Source: a virus (taxonomy: Duplodnaviria > Heunggongvirae > Uroviricota > Caudoviricetes). Taken from it: DNA of 22,380 bases. Position 1 is the stretch's first letter, and each line of letters begins with the position of its first letter. Positions 4,746 through 21,203 of this stretch are shown here, piece after piece. The stretch lies in the IMG/VR virus record IMGVR_UViG_2778261510_000012. The stretch is one strand, 5' to 3'. Position numbers and translations under genes: made by a program. The notes beneath the pieces are model-generated. The model was not told where the DNA came from and did no database searches. It worked only from the letters and a program-made list of their open reading frames with translations.

Positions 4746-4930
4746 TGCCAGCATCCTTTTTGTATCGGACGTAAACGGGCCAGCATTGAAAGAATGCATA
4801 TTTTATTTAATAACTCCCGTTCGTGTTTTCTCTTGTTAATGGCATCTTCAGTAAATACAGGGTTACTGATAGTGACACCAATTTCAAAACAACCTTCAGA
4901 CGTATTAACGTTTGGTAATAACGTTTCCAT
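4742..4930 (-). CDS. dicB: Cell-division inhibitor DicB
   Basis: 62-aa translation METLLPNVNTSEGCFEIGVTISNPVFTEDAINKRKHERELLNKICILSMLARLRPIQKGCWQ is near-identical to my recollection of E. coli DicB; the track ORF 4742..5035 is an in-frame upstream extension. Confidence 0.85.
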   Translation of the reverse strand: METLLPNVNTSEGCFEIGVTISNPVFTEDAINKRKHERELLNKICILSMLARLRPIQKGCWQ

Positions 4931-5099
4931 TATCGCGTCCTCAACAATGAATTTTGTGATGCGGTGCCTGGTGCCTCCAGGTGACGTTAACCAGTTAACA
5001 ATTAACGTCGGATACAGAGAATCCACCCATAACACTGTTTTTGGTTTTAACTGTTCCGCGTGCGCTTAGCCGCATTCACCGCATCACAAAATTCACTTT

Positions 5100-5157
5100 A
5101 AAAAGGGCGGCAGAGCAGCCACGGAGTAAAACTGATACCGCCAAACGTCACCAGAAA
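5100..5157 (-). ncRNA. dicF: DicF small regulatory RNA
   Basis: Minus-strand sequence TTTCTGGTGACGTTTGGCGGTATCAGTTTTACTCCGTGGCTGCTCTGCCGCCCTTTTT matches the DicF sRNA as I recall it (about one mismatch), ends in a GC stem plus U-tract, and lies about 170 nt upstream of dicB. Confidence 0.75.
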
Positions 5158-5490
5158 ATTGATAACAGAGGGCGTTGTAGCGGGGTTGTCACTTAAGCGT
5201 ATGGTCAACCTGACAACCCGGTGTCCTCAACGGGGAAGGAATAACCCCGCCATACTTACCGTCGCGCCATTTCGCGGAGTGCCACAACCGGAAGCGCACG
5301 GTCGACGAAAATTTAACGACAGGCTATCTATGAACCAGCTACCTCGCCGTGCGCTTTCGCGTTATGGTCTGACTTTTCAGGGAAATATCCTTTCAGTAAA
5401 CTGTCAGTGCCGGATGCTCACCCGTGTCCGGCGCACGCACTCCACCTCACCCGTGGAGAACTCCTTAATTACCAACCCTCAGGAGGGTGA

Positions 5491-5724
5491 ATGTTAAAAT
5501 CAACTCTTATTGCTAAATGCCTTTATCAAAATCGCATGGTAAGCGGCATTTCAATAGGCGAGTCTGCAGTTAAAAGTATTTTCGAAGAGTACTTCACCGG
5601 GCATGATTTTAATAAATGGAATACCAAATTACCGCCAGCAGTTTCAACGCGTATTCTGAAAGCAACTGAAAGAGCAAGTACAATTCGCGTTAACTATTTC
5701 ATTAAAGATTTGTGGGATCTTTGA
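5491..5724 (+). CDS. Hypothetical 77-aa protein, plus-strand gene of an AT-rich cassette inside the dicB operon
   Basis: ATG at 5491 preceded by a strong SD (AGGAGGG, 4-nt spacer); AT-rich; its 3' end overlaps the 3' end of the convergent 135-aa gene by 23 bp; no recognisable motif. Confidence 0.45.
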   Translation: MLKSTLIAKCLYQNRMVSGISIGESAVKSIFEEYFTGHDFNKWNTKLPPAVSTRILKATERASTIRVNYFIKDLWDL

Positions 5725-6109
5725 TATCCACAGAGCCTAAAGTATGTGCATATGGATGTGCTATTGTGCGCCCTCGCAGATTTGCATCATTTTCTAAATT
5801 CACTGAACGAAACAGGGCATCAACAAGGCTCTGTACAATGCAAAGGCAATCGAAGACTGTCGCTGTTTCTGTTTTGATTGATGAAAGAACATGGCCATTC
5901 ACGCAAACAGAAATTACCCGTTCATTAACATCGCTTTCCTGCTTTTGATTATCAGAACCATATAGCCCAGAAAAAGCATTGCGCACATTACGAACCATAT
6001 TATCGATGGTTTCTTTTTTGGTGTATGCCGGGTCAATTTTCACCAGACTATCACCGAGAGTCGTTGCAGCAATTGTCTGGATTTCTTTTGGTAAATCTTT
6101 AAATTCCAT
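5702..6109 (-). CDS. Hypothetical 135-aa protein (operon-embedded cargo gene)
   Basis: ORF with RBS (ACGAGG) 22 bp downstream of the ydfC-like gene on the same strand; AT-rich relative to flanks; no recognisable motif. Confidence 0.6.
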   Translation of the reverse strand: MEFKDLPKEIQTIAATTLGDSLVKIDPAYTKKETIDNMVRNVRNAFSGLYGSDNQKQESDVNERVISVCVNGHVLSSIKTETATVFDCLCIVQSLVDALFRSVNLENDANLRGRTIAHPYAHTLGSVDIKDPTNL

Positions 6110-6131
6110 TATTAGCCTCGTTGGTTAGCTA

Positions 6132-6350
6132 TTAACGCGGGTATGTAATCATTCTGGCAATGCTCAATGCCGCTGCTTTTTCCAGATTGGTGATATCCTG
6201 CTCCAGAGCGGACAGATTTTCAGCTTGCTTAGCCCTGGCTTCATTGGCCCATTTCAGATCCTGCGCTGCCTTAATTTTCTGGCGCATCCACTCATAAAGT
6301 TCATCATCGGTATAGTCTGGCGCGATGATGACGGGTTCTCGTTTCTGCAT
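6132..6350 (-). CDS. YdfC-like small protein (72 aa)
   Basis: 72-aa ORF with RBS GAGGAA; third of three small ORFs (51/42/72 aa) whose sizes and order match ydfA-ydfB-ydfC of the Qin dicB operon as I recall them. Confidence 0.55.
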   Translation of the reverse strand: MQKREPVIIAPDYTDDELYEWMRQKIKAAQDLKWANEARAKQAENLSALEQDITNLEKAAALSIARMITYPR

Positions 6351-6379
6351 ACTGATTCCTCGCGGTGCTGTTTCGCTTA

Positions 6380-6508
6380 TCAGCCGTTAGATTTTGCCGA
6401 ACTGGAAAGCGCCTGTTTAAACTCACTGAAGCTGAGAGCTTCTGCGCCTTCGGCAAGGCCTTCGAAGTATTCTTCGTAAGCCTTTTTCATGATTGTGTCG
6501 AAATCCAT
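6380..6508 (-). CDS. YdfB-like small protein (42 aa)
   Basis: ORF MDFDTIMKKAYEEYFEGLAEGAEALSFSEFKQALSSSAKSNG, not in the supplied track (under 60 aa); ATG overlaps the upstream stop (TGATATG); RBS AGGTGAG. Confidence 0.45.
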   Translation of the reverse strand: MDFDTIMKKAYEEYFEGLAEGAEALSFSEFKQALSSSAKSNG

Positions 6509-6509
6509 A

Positions 6510-6665
6510 TCACTCACCTGAGTTTCTTTCCAGCCAGCGACGGGCACCATTTTCGGTTTTAAACGTTTTGCTTTTGGTATACGTCATCGCGGTGAATGTG
6601 CCGTCCTGGTTGGGAAACACGCCGTACACCAGAGATTCGTTGTTGCCAAGATTGATAGTATCCAT
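6510..6665 (-). CDS. YdfA-like small protein (51 aa), first gene of the leftward early operon
   Basis: Internal ATG at 6665 preceded by GGAAATGAGG gives MDTINLGNNESLVYGVFPNQDGTFTAMTYTKSKTFKTENGARRWLERNSGE (51 aa); the track ORF 6510..6746 is a longer in-frame extension. Confidence 0.5.
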   Translation of the reverse strand: MDTINLGNNESLVYGVFPNQDGTFTAMTYTKSKTFKTENGARRWLERNSGE

Positions 6666-6957: not shown

Positions 6958-7596
6958 TTAAATATCTTGTTGAATTTTAAAGCATACGCCCAATATGCAA
7001 GATAGATCATCCAGCATAATTGAAGGGTAGCGAGGATTTGTGGGGACTAAAAGAATATCCGGCCCTTCTATCTCCAGTTTACGAATGACAGGTGTTGTGG
7101 TCCCTTTGGGTAAGGCAAGGACAATATTTCCTGGTTGTACGGTTCGATCGGGATCAACAAAAACTGTTGAACCATTTGGGATGGAAACTCCCCCACCAGA
7201 TGTTGACATACTGTCACTCTCTAGAACAACTGCAAAGGTATTGGCCGGGATTTCTCCGACAAGCTGCACACAAGAGGTTATTGAGGAATTTTTCATATAA
7301 TCACTCCAGCTTGCTGCCTGCTGAAGTGATAGTAGCGGAACCGTTTTTATCGGCGGTAAAGATAGATCAAGCGAATCACCTGTATTTAACTCTCCTCCAT
7401 TAAGAAGCCAATTTTCGTTTACTTTCAATATCTTTGCCAGTGAACTTATGTAACGCGAGGACGGCGCTCCTCCACCGTTCATCCATTGACTTACGGAGCC
7501 TTTTGATGCGCCAGTGGCATTGACAAGGTCTTTGCCTTTCAGGTTTAGCGCATGCATACGTTGGGTTATGCGTTCAGATATTGTTTGCTTGCTCAT
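6958..7596 (-). CDS. Prophage repressor, CI-like (N-terminal HTH, C-terminal S24 LexA-like peptidase)
   Basis: 212 aa; N-terminal HTH-like segment (QTISERITQRMHALNLKGKDLVNATGASKGSVSQW); C-terminal S24-like Ser (ESDSMS) and Lys (VIRKL); divergent from the cro-like gene; no SD before the ATG, consistent with a leaderless pRM-type transcript. Confidence 0.85.
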   Translation of the reverse strand: MSKQTISERITQRMHALNLKGKDLVNATGASKGSVSQWMNGGGAPSSRYISSLAKILKVNENWLLNGGELNTGDSLDLSLPPIKTVPLLSLQQAASWSDYMKNSSITSCVQLVGEIPANTFAVVLESDSMSTSGGGVSIPNGSTVFVDPDRTVQPGNIVLALPKGTTTPVIRKLEIEGPDILLVPTNPRYPSIMLDDLSCILGVCFKIQQDI

Positions 7597-7687: not shown

Positions 7688-7918
7688 ATGAAAAAATCAG
7701 AAGTATTAGGCTATTTTGGCGGAGTTGTTAAAACAGCCGCAGCTCTAGGAACGTCAAAAACCACAGTCAGCATGTGGGGGGAAGAGGTTCCGTGGAAATG
7801 GGCGTTGCTAATTCAGGCAGTCACTGCCGGGGCGCTCAAATATGAGTTACACATACCGACGGTTGTCATTCCCGGTTCTGATCATAATCCGCCTTCTAAC
7901 CAAGGGGGGGATTCATGA
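7688..7918 (+). CDS. Cro-like HTH regulator (DicC/YdaS-like)
   Basis: 76 aa from the ATG at 7688 (GGAG RBS); LGYFGG...KTAAALG...SMW pattern resembles the DicC/YdaS Cro-type proteins; divergent from the repressor. Confidence 0.7.
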   Translation: MKKSEVLGYFGGVVKTAAALGTSKTTVSMWGEEVPWKWALLIQAVTAGALKYELHIPTVVIPGSDHNPPSNQGGDS

Positions 7919-8340
7919 AAATCAAGCATGAACACATCCGCATGGCGATGAATGCCTGGGCGCGTCCTGATGGCGAAAAAGTTCCAGCAGCTGGAATAAC
8001 CCAGGCTTATTTTGAGTTGGGTATGACGTTTCCTGAACTGTATGACGACAGCCATCCGGAAGCCTTGGCTCGCAATACCCAGAAAATTTTCCGCTGGGTA
8101 GAGAAAGACACCCCTGATGCAGTTGAAAAAATTCAGGCGTTGTTACCAGCGATCGAAAAGGCAATGCCACCTTTGCTGGTGGCCAGAATGCGCAGCCACA
8201 GTTCAGCTTATTTTCGGGAGCTGGTGGAGACGCGGGAGCGATTGGTGAGAGACGCTGATGATTTTGTCGCAGTGGCAATCGCCGGTTTCAATCAGATGAA
8301 CCGTGGTGGCCCGGCAGGAAATGCTGTGGCAGTACATTGA
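7915..8340 (+). CDS. YdaT-like protein (CII-like position)
   Basis: 141 aa; N-terminus MKIKHEHI matches the YdaT family as I recall it; ATGA overlap with the cro-like gene. Confidence 0.65.
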   Translation: MKIKHEHIRMAMNAWARPDGEKVPAAGITQAYFELGMTFPELYDDSHPEALARNTQKIFRWVEKDTPDAVEKIQALLPAIEKAMPPLLVARMRSHSSAYFRELVETRERLVRDADDFVAVAIAGFNQMNRGGPAGNAVAVH

Positions 8341-10900: not shown

Positions 10901-11524
10901 TTTTATTCCCTCAGTAGCATAAGCTATCTATACGTTTTTTAATCCTATCAAAGATACAACTTAACGTCAGGAAAATGATAGTGTTTATCTAAGTAATACA
11001 ATTAACTTCAACGCGTGACAGTCTGCTTTTCGCTCAAAGCGGACTAGAAGGTTAGCTTGCGTCGGACTTGGCGTATTTAAAGAAGTGCTGGTGGTGACTG
11101 GTTGTTGTGTTCCATTTCTACAGAACAAAATCACAGAAACTATACCCAATAGTTGTATTGAATCACTGACGAGACAGCCTCATATTTATCAGGACTGGTG
11201 TACGTCCAATACAGGAGGTTGTGGTGCTGGTTCTCAAATGTGCGCTGGCTATTGCTGCTGTAATGGCAATTTATTGCCTTGCTGTTGTTCTTATGGATCG
11301 CCTTTCTGACTGATTTCATATTGGCGAGGTAACGGGAGTTAAGTAGAATGGCTGCGGGTGCTTGAGGCTATCTGTCTCAGGCATGAACACCAAAGGCAGA
11401 TAGAGAAAAGCCCCAGTTAACATTACGCGTCCTGCAAGACGCTTAACATTAATCTGAGGCCATATCTATGCTCTACACACATAGGTTAGCCTCTTACGTG
11501 CCGAAAGGCAAGGAGGAGCAGTCT

Positions 11525-11680
11525 ATGAAGCAGCAAAAGGCGATGTTAATCGCCCTGATCGTCATCTGTTTAACCGTCATAGTGACGGCACTGGTAACGA
11601 GGAAAGACCTCTGCGAGGTACGAATCCGAACCGGCCAGACGGAGGTCGCTGTCTTCACAGCTTACGAACCTGAGGAGTAA
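11525..11680 (+). CDS. hokD: Hok-family type I toxin (HokD/RelF-like)
   Basis: 51-aa translation MKQQKAMLIALIVICLTVIVTALVTRKDLCEVRIRTGQTEVAVFTAYEPEE matches HokD/RelF as I recall it; AGGAGG RBS 8 nt upstream; the track ORF from 11468 is an in-frame extension. Confidence 0.85.
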   Translation: MKQQKAMLIALIVICLTVIVTALVTRKDLCEVRIRTGQTEVAVFTAYEPEE

Positions 11681-15040: not shown

Positions 15041-15115
15041 GGCCCTTTAGCTCAGTGGTGAGAGCGAGCGACTCATAATCGCCAGGTCGCTGGTTCAAAT
15101 CCAGCAAGGGCCACC
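15041..15115 (+). tRNA. tRNA with CAU anticodon, tRNA-Ile2 (lysidine)-like
   Basis: 75-nt cloverleaf: acceptor GGCCCTT/AAGGGCC, D-arm GCTC-AGTGGTGA-GAGC, anticodon loop CTCATAA, T-arm GCTGG-TTCAAAT-CCAGC, 3' ACCA; closely parallels E. coli tRNA-Ile2; Met cannot be excluded from sequence alone. Confidence 0.85.
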
Positions 15116-15118
15116 ATT

Positions 15119-15195
15119 CCGCCACCAGCTCATCTGGATAGAGCATCAGCCTTCTAAGTTGATTGTGCGAGGTTCGAGCACCCGGTGGCGGACCA
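15119..15195 (+). tRNA. tRNA-like sequence with Arg (UCU) anticodon loop, probably degenerate
   Basis: D-arm GCTC-ATCTGGATA-GAGC and anticodon arm TCAGC-CTTCTAA-GTTGA are canonical and the 3' end is ACCA, but the acceptor stem has one mismatch, position 8 is C, and the T-stem pairs at only 3 of 5 positions. Confidence 0.4.
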
Positions 15196-18298: not shown

Positions 18299-18781
18299 AT
18301 GTCAGGACCCCCGAAAACCCCGCCACGCCTGCATTTGATACGAGGCAACCCCTCAAAGCGCCCCGTTAAAGACCCAAAAAAAACCGCTAAAAAGGATGAA
18401 AAAGGTCTCCCTAAAATTCCGCAACATTTAGGGTCGCAGGGGAAGTACTGGTTCAGGCGAATGGCGGAAGAACTGAATGCGGAAGGGATCATTTCTCAGC
18501 TTGATGCGCGTGCACTCGAGTTACTGGTGGAAGCCTACACCGAATACCGGCATCACTGCGAAACACTTGATGCTGAGGGTTATACCTACCGCACGGAAAC
18601 GCAGAACGGTGATGTGCTGATTAAGGCACACCCGGCTGCTGCGATGAAAGCGGATGCCTGGAAGCGGATCCGGGCGATGCTTGCAGAGTTTGGTATGTCA
18701 CCGGCAAGCCGGGCGAAAGTAAATACCGCCGGACCGGATGATGTTGATCCGCTGGCGGAACTTTTAAAAGCGAGAGACTGA
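18299..18781 (+). CDS. Terminase small subunit (P27-family-like)
   Basis: 160 aa; basic N-terminus, conserved LDARALELLVEAY...AEFGMSPASRAK pattern; stop overlaps the large-subunit start. Confidence 0.8.
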   Translation: MSGPPKTPPRLHLIRGNPSKRPVKDPKKTAKKDEKGLPKIPQHLGSQGKYWFRRMAEELNAEGIISQLDARALELLVEAYTEYRHHCETLDAEGYTYRTETQNGDVLIKAHPAAAMKADAWKRIRAMLAEFGMSPASRAKVNTAGPDDVDPLAELLKARD

Positions 18782-19974
18782 TGGCAAAAGTGGCTGACGG
18801 GATCCGCTACGCCGAACGTGTTGTTGCAGGAGAAATTGTCGCTGGCGAATTTGTCCGTCTGGCCTGCCAGCGTTTTCTTGATGATCTGAAGTACGGCGAA
18901 GAGCGGGGGATTTATTTCAGTGAACCCCGTGCGCAGCACATCCTGAATTTCTACAAATTTGTGCCTCATGTAAAAGGGGCGCTGGCAGGCCAGCCTATTG
19001 AGTTGATGGACTGGCATGTATTTATCCTCATTAATATTTTTGGTTTTGTCATTCCGCTGGTCAATGAAGAGACCGGGGAAGTTGTCATGCGCAGCGATGG
19101 CAGCGGACGTCCGGTGATGGTGCGCCGGTTCCGGACGGCGTACAACGAAGTCGCCCGTAAAAACGCAAAATCAACCCTGTCATCGGGTATCGGTCTGTAT
19201 ATGACGGGGGCAGATGGTGAAGGCGGTGCTGAGGTGTATTCAGCCGCAACTACGCGTGACCAGGCCAGAATCGTGTTTGAAGACGCCAAAAATATGGTCA
19301 GAAAAGCCCGGTCGACACTCGGGCGGTTGTTTGATTTCAACAAGCTGGCGATTTACCAGGAGCAGAGCGCATCAAAATTTGAACCGCTTTCTTCGGATGC
19401 AAACAACCTGGATGGTCTGAACATCCACTGCGCCATTATTGATGAGCTGCATGCACATAAAACCCGTGACGTGTGGGACGTTCTGGAAACGGCAACCGGT
19501 GCCCGTCTGCAGTCCCTTTTATTTGGTATCACCACGGCAGGGTTTAACAAGGAAGGGATTTGTTACGAGCAGCGTGATTACGCCATCAAGGTATTGCGTG
19601 GCTATAACAGCGACGTGGAGGGCGCGGTAAAAGACGACTCCTACTTTGCGATTATTTACACCCTCGATGAGGGAGATGATCCGTTTGATGAAACGGTCTG
19701 GCAGAAAGCGAATCCCGGCCTGGGCATCTGTAAACGCTGGGATGATCTGCGTCGCCTGGCGAAAAAAGCGAAAGAACAGGTCTCTGCGCGGGTGAATTTT
19801 TTTACCAAGAACGTAACATCACGCCGTAACAACAGTGCGGCCTGTCCTGATTTTTTTAGTAACCAAATGAAAGAAAAAGATTTTTTCTTGTTCGTCGTTT
19901 TTGTTTTTTCTGGAAGGTTCTGGCTGTTTTCATCATTTGTGTATTGCACTGTGTATTGCAAAAACGGGTTATAA
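18781..19974 (+). pseudogene. Terminase large subunit, 3'-truncated (ATPase region only)
   Basis: About 340 aa of terminase-like sequence, then the frame runs into AT-rich low-complexity codons (FFTKNVTSRRNNSAACPDFFSNQMKEKDFFLFVVFVF...) and stops; the nuclease domain expected in a ~550-aa protein is missing. Confidence 0.75.
19938..19960. repeat. Tandem direct repeat TGTGTATTGCA x2 upstream of the P4-type integrase
   Basis: TGTGTATTGCA at 19938-19948 and 19950-19960, about 20 bp before the int start. Confidence 0.6.
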
Positions 19975-19979
19975 ATCAC

Positions 19980-21203
19980 ATGGCGCTAAACAAACTGAGC
20001 GATAAAAAACTTCGTTCCCTGCTTGGGCGCAGGAGTGAGAGGCAGGAAACCATCGCTGATGGTAACGGGCTTTCGGTACGGGTCAGTAAATACGGATGTG
20101 TTAGTTTTGTTTTCTTTTACAGACTGGCGGGAAGGGGAACCGCGCCCATCTGGCTGACACTTGGAAAATATCCTGATCTGAGTCTCAAATCAGCGAGAGA
20201 GATGCGCGATCAGTGTCGAACCTGGCTTGCGGAGGGCAGAGATCCACGGATTCAGATAAAAATTGAACGGGAAGCCACCTTGCAACCTGTTACCGTTCGT
20301 GAGGCGCTTGAATACTGGCTTGATAATTATGCAATGGATAAGCGTAGGGGAGCAGAACATATCAGGCAGTGCTTTGGTAAACATATTTATCCGGTGATTG
20401 GTCATGTACCACTTAGTGATTGCTCAATATCTATGTGGATCAAGTGCTTTGACAAAATAAAAAAAGTAGCACCTGTACAGGCCGGAGCTTTATTGCGTAT
20501 ATCAAAACAGGCGCTTAAATTTTGTCGGGTAAGAAAATACGCGATTAGTCATGAAATTGATGATCTTGAGGTCTGTGATGTGGGAAAAAAGTCTGCGCGA
20601 AGAAGCAGGGTTTTAACAGATGATGAAATCAGAGATTTATGGCGAAGTATTAATACTGATTATGACAATCACGAATTATCATATGAAAACCGAATTATTT
20701 TACGTTTCCTGGTAGTTTTTGGTTGCCGACTGTCAGAAGTATTACTGTCCTCCTGGGGAGAGTGGGATTTTGATAAGAAATTATGGCGCGTTCCCGCTGA
20801 TCATAGCAAAAATGGCAGGGAAATAATCAGACCGATTCCTGATGGCATGTTTAACTGGTTAGTTACGTTAAAAAAAATAACAGGTAACAAAGAAAATGTG
20901 ATTGGGTTTGATATGCGTCAGTGTACGGCAAGCGTAACTATCGGTAAGACATGGAAAAGGATGAAACACTCGGAGAAATGGACGGCGCATGATATGCGAA
21001 GAGTGTTTGCCACAAAGCTAAGTGATCATGGTTTTGAACATAATGTGGTTGAACAGTTGCTTGGGCACACATTAGGCGGTGTTGCCGGGGTTTATAACAG
21101 AAGCCAGTATATGGACAGAAAAAAAGAAGCTATGAACTGGTGGTACGACTACCTGAATAAGCTAATTAGTGGTGATGGTAATGATTCAAATAGTTACGCG
21201 TGA
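19980..21203 (+). CDS. Tyrosine integrase, P4 type
   Basis: 407 aa from the ATG at 19980; N-terminus MALNKLSDKKLRSLLG...GNGLSVRVSKYGCVSFVFFYRLAGRG...LGKYPDLSLKSAREMRDQ matches the P4-integrase arm-binding region; C-terminal HDMRRVFAT...LLGHT...YNR catalytic motifs. Confidence 0.9.
   Translation: MALNKLSDKKLRSLLGRRSERQETIADGNGLSVRVSKYGCVSFVFFYRLAGRGTAPIWLTLGKYPDLSLKSAREMRDQCRTWLAEGRDPRIQIKIEREATLQPVTVREALEYWLDNYAMDKRRGAEHIRQCFGKHIYPVIGHVPLSDCSISMWIKCFDKIKKVAPVQAGALLRISKQALKFCRVRKYAISHEIDDLEVCDVGKKSARRSRVLTDDEIRDLWRSINTDYDNHELSYENRIILRFLVVFGCRLSEVLLSSWGEWDFDKKLWRVPADHSKNGREIIRPIPDGMFNWLVTLKKITGNKENVIGFDMRQCTASVTIGKTWKRMKHSEKWTAHDMRRVFATKLSDHGFEHNVVEQLLGHTLGGVAGVYNRSQYMDRKKEAMNWWYDYLNKLISGDGNDSNSYA

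Follow-up and report, generated by a model that had tools for sequence, protein, structure and literature searches.

The window analysed here, a 22,380-nucleotide (nt) stretch of DNA from IMG/VR virus record IMGVR_UViG_2778261510_000012 (Caudoviricetes), is a defective lambdoid prophage that extends from an integrase gene to a truncated terminase gene. It contains a dicBF operon with an accessory cassette between ydfC and the dicF leader. The cassette consists of two convergent genes encoding proteins of 135 and 77 amino acids (aa). Judged from sequence, the pair is best described as a putative two-protein convergent cognate module outside the known toxin-antitoxin (TA), defence and exclusion families, and as one allele of a polymorphic dicBF locus. 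As a cryptic-prophage locus, the dicBF operon is a textbook case: Its products DicF, DicB and YdfD influence cell division, lysis and phage resistance. About 1/8 of the complete Escherichia coli genomes hold this uncharacterised pair in the middle of the operon, and others hold alternative pairs there.

The cassette and its two genes

The cassette comprises the following features (window positions, lengths in base pairs, bp):

5478-6111, no strand: accessory cassette, 634 bp, DNA absent from K-12 Qin
5491-5724, plus strand: 77-aa gene, an open reading frame (ORF) of phrog_10348 and the sole plus-strand gene of the left arm
5481-5486, plus strand: Shine-Dalgarno (SD) sequence AGGAGG of the 77-aa gene, 4 nt ahead of its ATG, read from the sequence
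5702-6109, minus strand: 135-aa gene, an ORF co-oriented with the dicBF operon; RefSeq WP_000394519.1; phrog_1363 (PHROG E=2e-46)
6116-6119, minus strand: GAGG ribosome-binding site of the 135-aa gene, 6 nt ahead of its ATG; K-12 has AAAG there
5936-6109, minus strand: N-terminal 'MEFKDLP' helical-hairpin domain of the 135-aa protein (aa 1-58), with helices 8-23 and 32-49 in the AlphaFold2 (AF2) model
5702-5935, minus strand: core domain of the 135-aa protein (aa 59-135), phrog_23433, homologous to stand-alone partners of 75-80 aa
5702-5724, no strand: 3' overlap of both genes, 23 bp

Window positions 6112-6500 and 4900-5477 align at ~97% to directly adjacent positions of E. coli K-12 (L002, positions 4062 and 4063). 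Since these flanks are contiguous in K-12, the extra DNA of the window comprises exactly the 634 bp from 5478 to 6111, located between ydfC and the dicF leader. The guanine-cytosine (GC) content of the insert is 39.3% vs 48.9% and 47.9% in flanks of equal length, which places it in the lowest 5% among all 634-bp stretches of the window. The operon order on both sides, ydfA/ydfB/ydfC ... dicB/ydfD, agrees with that of K-12 Qin. A preliminary description of this DNA had recognised the same Qin-like order with DicF ahead of dicB/ydfD, and it had located lower-GC accessory DNA between ydfC and DicF. Both points were borne out by the alignment and by the difference between 39.3% and 48-49% GC, and the ORF coordinates, strands, 23-bp overlap and SD sequence that it had given agree with the letters. 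Its statement that K-12 Qin has no genes at this position proved correct, as the flanks are directly adjacent in K-12. In addition, its remark that a transcript of the 77-aa gene would be antisense to read-through towards dicF/dicB follows from the geometry.

In the RefSeq genome EC416, which is 100% identical, both ORFs bear the annotation 'hypothetical protein', and every copy of either protein in public collections carries this name. Homologues of the 77-aa protein are full-length, share 53-70% identity and are almost all exactly 77 aa long. They occur in Klebsiella, Serratia, Dickeya, Xenorhabdus, Yersinia, Morganella and Salmonella. An exhaustive HMMER search yielded 163 representative clusters, nearly all of them stand-alone proteins of 74-80 aa; the genomic context was looked at for only a handful of these clusters. 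Across 15 loci (14 divergent pairs and that of the window), the proportions of nonsynonymous and synonymous differences (pN/pS) are 0.24/0.75 for the 77-aa gene and 0.38/0.73 for the core of its partner; the 77-aa gene is thus more conserved than the core. Both genes are real, protein-coding and under purifying selection. The explanation that the 77-aa ORF is spurious was ruled out by its fixed length, the 163 clusters and the pN/pS values.

For the 77-aa protein, AF2 very confidently predicts an all-helical structure with five helices (predicted local distance difference test, pLDDT, 96.8). A grand average of hydropathy (GRAVY) of -0.12 characterises it as soluble. The model of the 135-aa protein (pLDDT 74.5) comprises two domains: A helical hairpin (residues 8-49) is followed by a disordered linker at residues 50-60 and then by a beta-hairpin plus helices. 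Charge complementarity between a basic 77-aa protein and an acidic partner was considered as a TA-like sign. It is true in the window but fails family-wide, where the median isoelectric point is 6.6.

The two domains of the 135-aa protein have different distributions. The N-terminal MEFKDLP domain is common to proteins with unrelated C-termini (P0042, P0044, P0045, P0051 and P0052) and is also present in phrog_9419, phrog_2151, phrog_6937 and phrog_33007. It is the constant part of the polymorphic E. coli locus. The core aligns with the 77-79-aa partners of the 77-aa gene in Serratia, Klebsiella and Dickeya, and a search with its profile found 76 clusters. A scan of genome contigs with the core profile returned one locus only, and scans of viral sequences with distant members of the 77-aa family returned nothing. 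The core of the E. coli and Salmonella proteins is joined to the MEFKDLP hairpin. Elsewhere, it carries an N-terminal ClpX-type C4 zinc finger instead (PF06689, E=6e-9), as in P0116, P0141-P0143 from Citrobacter and L088 (4212-4685, minus strand). Since a zinc finger is found in some lineages and MEFKDLP in others, the core has repeatedly gained different small N-terminal domains. Possibly, these acquired domains are dimerising.

Co-inheritance, relatives and alternative cassettes

All 92 loci with a 77-aa gene that were examined also have a converging core gene, and among them are ~15 divergent lineages outside E. coli. The divergences of the two proteins are correlated even when the overlap is excluded (Mantel r=0.68, a value reached by 1 of 5,000 permutations). 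By contrast, flanking genes and repressors around the pair are reshuffled between loci, and near-identical cassettes adjoin at least 10 unrelated repressor types, so that the cassette is not tied to any one immunity type. By these comparisons, the 77-aa gene and the core form an old and tightly linked cognate pair, passed on together throughout Enterobacterales.

Nearly all of the 92 loci have the 23-bp overlap, and even a distant pair with ~37% identity (L293) retains it. Its length is fixed because the stop codon of the partner sits within the conserved F-I-K-D-L-W codons at the C-terminus of the 77-aa protein. A bidirectional terminator in the overlap was ruled out: The hairpin is weak (-9.4 kcal/mol) and lacks a U-tract, so that it is not an intrinsic terminator.

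Outside E. coli, the pair is located close to the phage repressor gene. In Klebsiella, Serratia and Dickeya, the order is cI, operators and the core gene on the minus strand, followed by the 77-aa gene on the plus strand converging on it. In Yersinia and Xenorhabdus prophages, the pair also occupies the sieB position beside the repressor. The operator palindromes from the cI-cro region are repeated directly upstream of the partner gene in a Klebsiella (L007) and a Serratia (L005) locus, near a good -35/-10 pair. The partner is therefore the first gene of the CI-repressed early-left (pL) transcript. Early-left accessory neighbours of the pair in the relatives are RdgC, YfdP and DUF2303, and YdfC-like genes precede the partner gene in L091 and L093 as they do in the window. 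Furthermore, the pair is found in prophages that have neither dicF nor dicB downstream.

The counter-oriented gene of these relatives apparently has a promoter of its own. Although their synonymous sites are saturated, 12 loci all have a TG-n-TA-nnn-T motif 35-40 nt ahead of the ATG of the 77-aa gene, which is the signature of an extended -10 promoter. In Klebsiella, the conserved element reads TTCACC-N16-TGnTATCTT. In six loci (L003, L007, L086, L088, L091 and L093), two conserved inverted repeats were observed ~30-90 nt before this ATG. The first, CCAC...GTGG, spans the -35/spacer region and has an apparently compensatory variant, CCACA/TGTGG, in L091. The second, CTTGG-N13-CCAAG, is located in the presumed 5' untranslated region of the 77-aa gene. 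The repeats might serve as an operator and as a hairpin for translational control.

Two further observations concern the neighbourhood of the pair in the relatives. In Xenorhabdus-like prophages, a gene for a CsrA-like small protein (MLTLTRRP...) is situated directly beside the pair (L085, 3725-3919, and L091, 3640-3849, both minus strand). In the Serratia prophage L003, an extra gene for a 307-aa protein without a Pfam match (5713-6636, minus strand) lies between repressor and pair. In BTP1, the defence gene bstA occupies this position.

In E. coli, the site between ydfC/ydfA and the dicF leader accommodates alternative cassettes. The cassette of the window, designated type A (135 aa + 77 aa, 23-bp overlap), occurs in 646 of the 5,426 complete E. 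coli genomes. Its carriers include O157:H7, O145:H28, O103 and O111:H8 strains as well as phage Evi and PPompW prophages. Type B combines a 201-aa gene with an unrelated gene of 63 aa, the two likewise overlapping by 23 bp, and type C a 210-216-aa gene with an unrelated 69-73-aa gene, the two genes abutting. In addition, further forms exist beyond these three. Types A, B and C all share MEFKDLP, each small gene always accompanies its own large-protein domain, and all three types place a counter-oriented gene at the site. Remote homology among their small proteins was not detected with hhalign. The cassette is a mobile, dispensable, lower-GC module, and the E. coli site exchanges one pair for another.

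Types A and B differ by an exact replacement of the 77-aa ORF (5492-5725) by 395 bp. The leader CAGGAGGGTGAA is common to both, i.e. it precedes the 77-aa gene in one and the unrelated 63-aa gene in the other. The C-terminal extension of the type B large protein and the 63-aa gene form a separate pair family that is found outside this locus, too: At 32 IMG/VR loci, a 69-aa homologue (54% identity to the 63-aa protein) converges with a 32-bp overlap on a ~120-aa protein whose C-terminus matches the type B extension. It was considered whether the 135-aa gene had arisen by truncation of the 201-aa form, with the 77-aa ORF as a mere artefact of the antisense strand. This was ruled out by the stand-alone partners of 75-80 aa. 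Since these partners in other genera end exactly like the 135-aa protein, the 201-aa form is derived. Type B (L011, 3584-3606; L180, L182) has the same 23-bp overlap as type A despite different sequences, and in both types the stop codon of the small gene falls in ATT-A.. codons of the large gene. The shared length may be a coincidence or may reflect a structural constraint.

Individual prophages carry the pair with one damaged gene. The 77-aa gene is frameshifted beside an intact 135-aa gene in L082 and L083, and the reverse is found in L027, which equals L152. A resident prophage can therefore lose either of the two. The cassette as a whole is dispensable: K-12 is without it, 12% of the genomes carry one, and either gene is disrupted in some loci.

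Possible functions of the pair

Sequence and profile searches of Pfam, NCBIfam and PDB yielded no matches for either protein, PADLOC-DB defence models gave 0 families at E<=1 for both, and a fold comparison of both AF2 models found no meaningful structural neighbour. The PHROG families of both proteins are of unknown function only. Domain and fold searches did not detect a helix-turn-helix (HTH) motif or a transcription-factor domain or fold in either protein. No Pfam domain was found in the large proteins of the cassettes, nor was a toxin, immunity, secretion or delivery domain recognised in them. A literature search by accession and locus found no study of these genes. The preliminary description had named no motif in either protein, which agrees with these empty domain, profile and fold searches, and it had treated the 77-aa ORF as a gene, which its conservation under purifying selection confirms. 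It had suggested TA, superinfection-exclusion or anti-defence cargo. Exclusion gains support from the sieB-like position in the relatives, whereas no known TA, defence or anti-defence family was matched. Its view that an overlapping convergent pair is typical of TA loci did not hold, as this layout is not typical of type II TA systems. The two-domain fusion in the 135-aa protein, the wide occurrence of the pair outside E. coli and the polymorphic E. coli site had escaped it.

The slot, the topology and the allele-like diversification together argue for a conflict function and not for a core phage function. The closest known arrangement is that of sieB. SieB is an exclusion protein expressed by the prophage, which P22 escapes via the antisense RNA sas and the polypeptide Esc (PMC12197685, PMC7067206). 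More generally, genes that run antisense to lytic ones count as characteristic accessory loci (PMC7067206, PMC3594210). In the P22 record, c2, OL/pL and gene 24 (minus strand) are followed by sieB/esc, which are encoded on the opposite strand, have their own promoter and converge on gene 24. Ranade and Poteete are said to have reported in 1993 that sas derives from the pL transcript. The sieB-esc-sas locus of P22 and lambda resembles the pair of the relatives in that a rightward gene with its own promoter lies within a leftward CI-repressed early operon and converges on the first gene of pL, adjacent to that for the repressor. In both cases, pL transcription is necessarily antisense to the counter-oriented gene. 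Furthermore, a second polypeptide, Esc there and the core protein here, is the candidate antagonist (PMC12197685). The differences are equally clear. SieB is much larger and has no likeness to the pair in sequence, fold or Pfam assignment. Esc is an in-frame internal product, whereas the candidate antagonist here is encoded by a separate convergent gene with a 23-bp overlap. The pair of the window forms the fourth and fifth unit of the dicBF operon and is not next to pL. Moreover, exclusion is the phenotype of the SieB/Esc locus and a candidate role of the pair.

Our tentative proposal, to which we give somewhat less than an even chance, is a mobile cognate effector/antagonist pair whose members are made in opposite regulatory states, most likely an exclusion or abortive-infection factor and an early self-protection partner. 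In the lysogen, the early operon would be repressed and the 77-aa protein would be made from its own promoter. Upon induction or infection, the repressor-controlled promoter (dicBp in the window) would transcribe antisense through the 77-aa gene and shut it down, either by antisense action or by collision. The same early transcript would yield the 135-aa protein, the core of which might bind or otherwise counteract the 77-aa protein. The logic of such a pair would follow that of sieB/esc/sas. This polarity is slightly favoured over the reverse because the counter-oriented gene has a conserved independent promoter, is more conserved and can exist alone; the reverse is nearly as likely.

Several findings weigh against this proposal. 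Neither protein resembles a known defence, TA or exclusion protein or fold, and the failure of charge complementarity across the family removes a TA-like sign. Partnerless 77-aa homologues exist (L177, L292), as does a core without the 77-aa gene in the 201-aa variant of type B. In the metagenomic phage L293 (1604-5231), the pair is inverted relative to the early genes YfdP/DUF2303: There, the sense operon includes the 77-aa homologue as its third gene, and the core homologue alone is counter-oriented. Therefore, orientation cannot assign roles for the entire family. Finally, a K-12-like dicF leader has replaced the native 77-aa promoter region in the window. The only promoter-like match on the plus strand there, TTTTCA-17-TAAACT (5374-5402), is weak and also present in K-12, so that the 77-aa gene may be poorly expressed in the window.

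The reverse polarity, taken by itself a rather unlikely explanation, deserves the most attention among the alternatives. According to it, the operon-encoded 135-aa protein would be a host-directed early effector with a variable C-terminal 'warhead' and the small gene a constitutive cognate antidote, which would guard the lysogen against leaky expression or against the same effector from incoming relatives. The constant N-domain with variable C-domains, each with its own small neighbour gene, resembles polymorphic toxin/immunity loci, where alternative C-terminal domains likewise follow a constant N-terminal one and have cognate small neighbours. The small genes have strong SD sequences, and the inverted pair of L293 makes fixed roles uncertain. 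Pore-forming colicins have immunity genes that converge on the SOS-controlled gene for the toxin, and the small gene here converges in the same manner on a repressor-controlled gene. Colicin immunity proteins, however, are membrane proteins, whereas the 77-aa protein is soluble. In addition, the host operon is rich in toxic products, namely DicB, DicF and YdfD (PMC5069750). On the other hand, the 77-aa protein is more conserved than the core (pN 0.24 vs 0.38), the 77-aa homologues of L177 and L292 have no partner to neutralise, the 135-aa gene is intact in L082 and L083 where the 77-aa gene is disrupted, and there is no likeness to any toxin family. If both proteins were instead produced at the same time as subunits of one early accessory complex, e.g. 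for anti-defence or host takeover, the overlap would be only a linkage device. Strict co-inheritance and correlated divergence would suit this idea, and so would the inverted module of L293, which indicates that the pair functions either way round relative to the early operon, and its place among the early-left accessory genes RdgC, YfdP and DUF2303. We consider it improbable, as the relatives have a conserved and separate extended -10 promoter for the counter-oriented member, this member would be read antisense by a strong early promoter, and each of the two is found alone in some phages.

A role at the RNA level has an even smaller chance. Here, the plus-strand transcript would act as an antisense brake on read-through that tunes DicF/DicB, and the proteins would be secondary. 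Any transcript of the 77-aa gene would indeed be complementary to the operon mRNA between ydfC and dicF, no terminator separates the genes, and a counter-oriented gene occupies this spot in all three E. coli types. However, both proteins are under strong amino-acid constraint while synonymous sites are saturated, the pair occurs in prophages without dicF/dicB downstream, and a promoter is not evident in the window. Least probable is that the 77-aa protein is a non-proteolytic antirepressor and its partner a regulator, i.e. an induction module independent of SOS. Small counter-oriented ORFs beside repressor genes control induction in other temperate phages (PMC10432266), and the pair is directly beside cI in the relatives. 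The modules of a transcription factor and a small ORF (TF-smORF; Silpe et al. 2023, PMC10432266) likewise contain a small ORF opposing its neighbour near a repressor and are diverse in sequence and similar in architecture. Yet they comprise a transcription factor and a divergent layout with a shared promoter region, while the pair here is convergent and has no HTH or transcription-factor domain or fold. A near-identical cassette beside at least 10 unrelated repressor types lacks a specific repressor pairing and is incompatible with repressor specificity.

Among other known systems, lambdoid morons (PMC3594210) come close: They too are extra DNA between genes that are adjacent in a relative, have a deviant GC content, are dispensable and occur in many different prophages. 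A classical moron has its own promoter and terminator, neither of which is convincing in the window, whereas the relatives in other genera have the extended -10 motif. Furthermore, one of the two cassette genes relies on the host operon for transcription. Type II TA systems likewise consist of two small, tightly linked and co-inherited genes on a mobile element. They are co-directional and co-transcribed, while our genes are convergent with a 23-bp overlap, match no TA family and do not co-occur obligately (L177, L292; type B).

Should the favoured exclusion/self-protection reading, or an effector/antidote module, be correct, prophage conflict systems would gain a new pair of protein families and a new helical fold. 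Such a conflict module would, if true, also explain a recombination hotspot in lambdoid early operons. A broader idea, which we regard as doubtful, is that the pair represents an unrecognised class of prophage conflict modules. These would be convergent 3'-overlapping pairs that work as a two-protein sieB/esc switch, have new folds and interchangeable alleles (types A, B and C in E. coli dicBF operons, O157:H7 included), and set superinfection and induction of related phages in the lysogen. The repressor-controlled early operon would supply one protein, and a counter-oriented promoter its cognate partner. Independent of its own function, the cassette is upstream of dicF on the same transcript and may therefore alter DicF/DicB output in pathogenic strains.

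The surrounding prophage

The neighbouring features of the leftward operon are:

6132-6350, minus strand: ydfC (RefSeq annotation), directly upstream of the cassette in the operon
5157-5477, minus strand: K-12-like dicF leader, 97.6% identity to K-12
5105-5156, minus strand: DicF small RNA (Rfam RF00039, 75 bits)
6958-7596, minus strand: CI-like S24 repressor of the leftward operon, a 212-aa ORF annotated as LexA family protein

RefSeq calls the repressor a 113-aa 'LexA family protein' (6958-7296); an uninterrupted ORF of 212 aa with an HTH-like N-terminus reaches 7596. The identical 212-aa protein was seen again in IMG/VR loci. A cro-like gene beside it (~7688-7931, plus strand) is annotated as a frameshifted pseudogene.

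A type I TA locus, hok/sok, is present in the same prophage (11356-11530, plus strand; Rfam sok 112.6 bits). The sok site is adjoined by hokD, which is annotated in EC416, and K-12 Qin likewise has hok/sok. Two phage-borne tRNA genes (15041-15192, plus strand), annotated as tRNA-Ile and tRNA-Arg, the second with only 32 bits, stand between the gene for the Q antiterminator and the holin/lysis genes. Further downstream (~18781-21203), the gene for the terminase large subunit is partial, and beyond it lie a second tyrosine integrase, HTH regulators and a BRO-N gene. This suggests that a second element has been inserted into the late region of the prophage.

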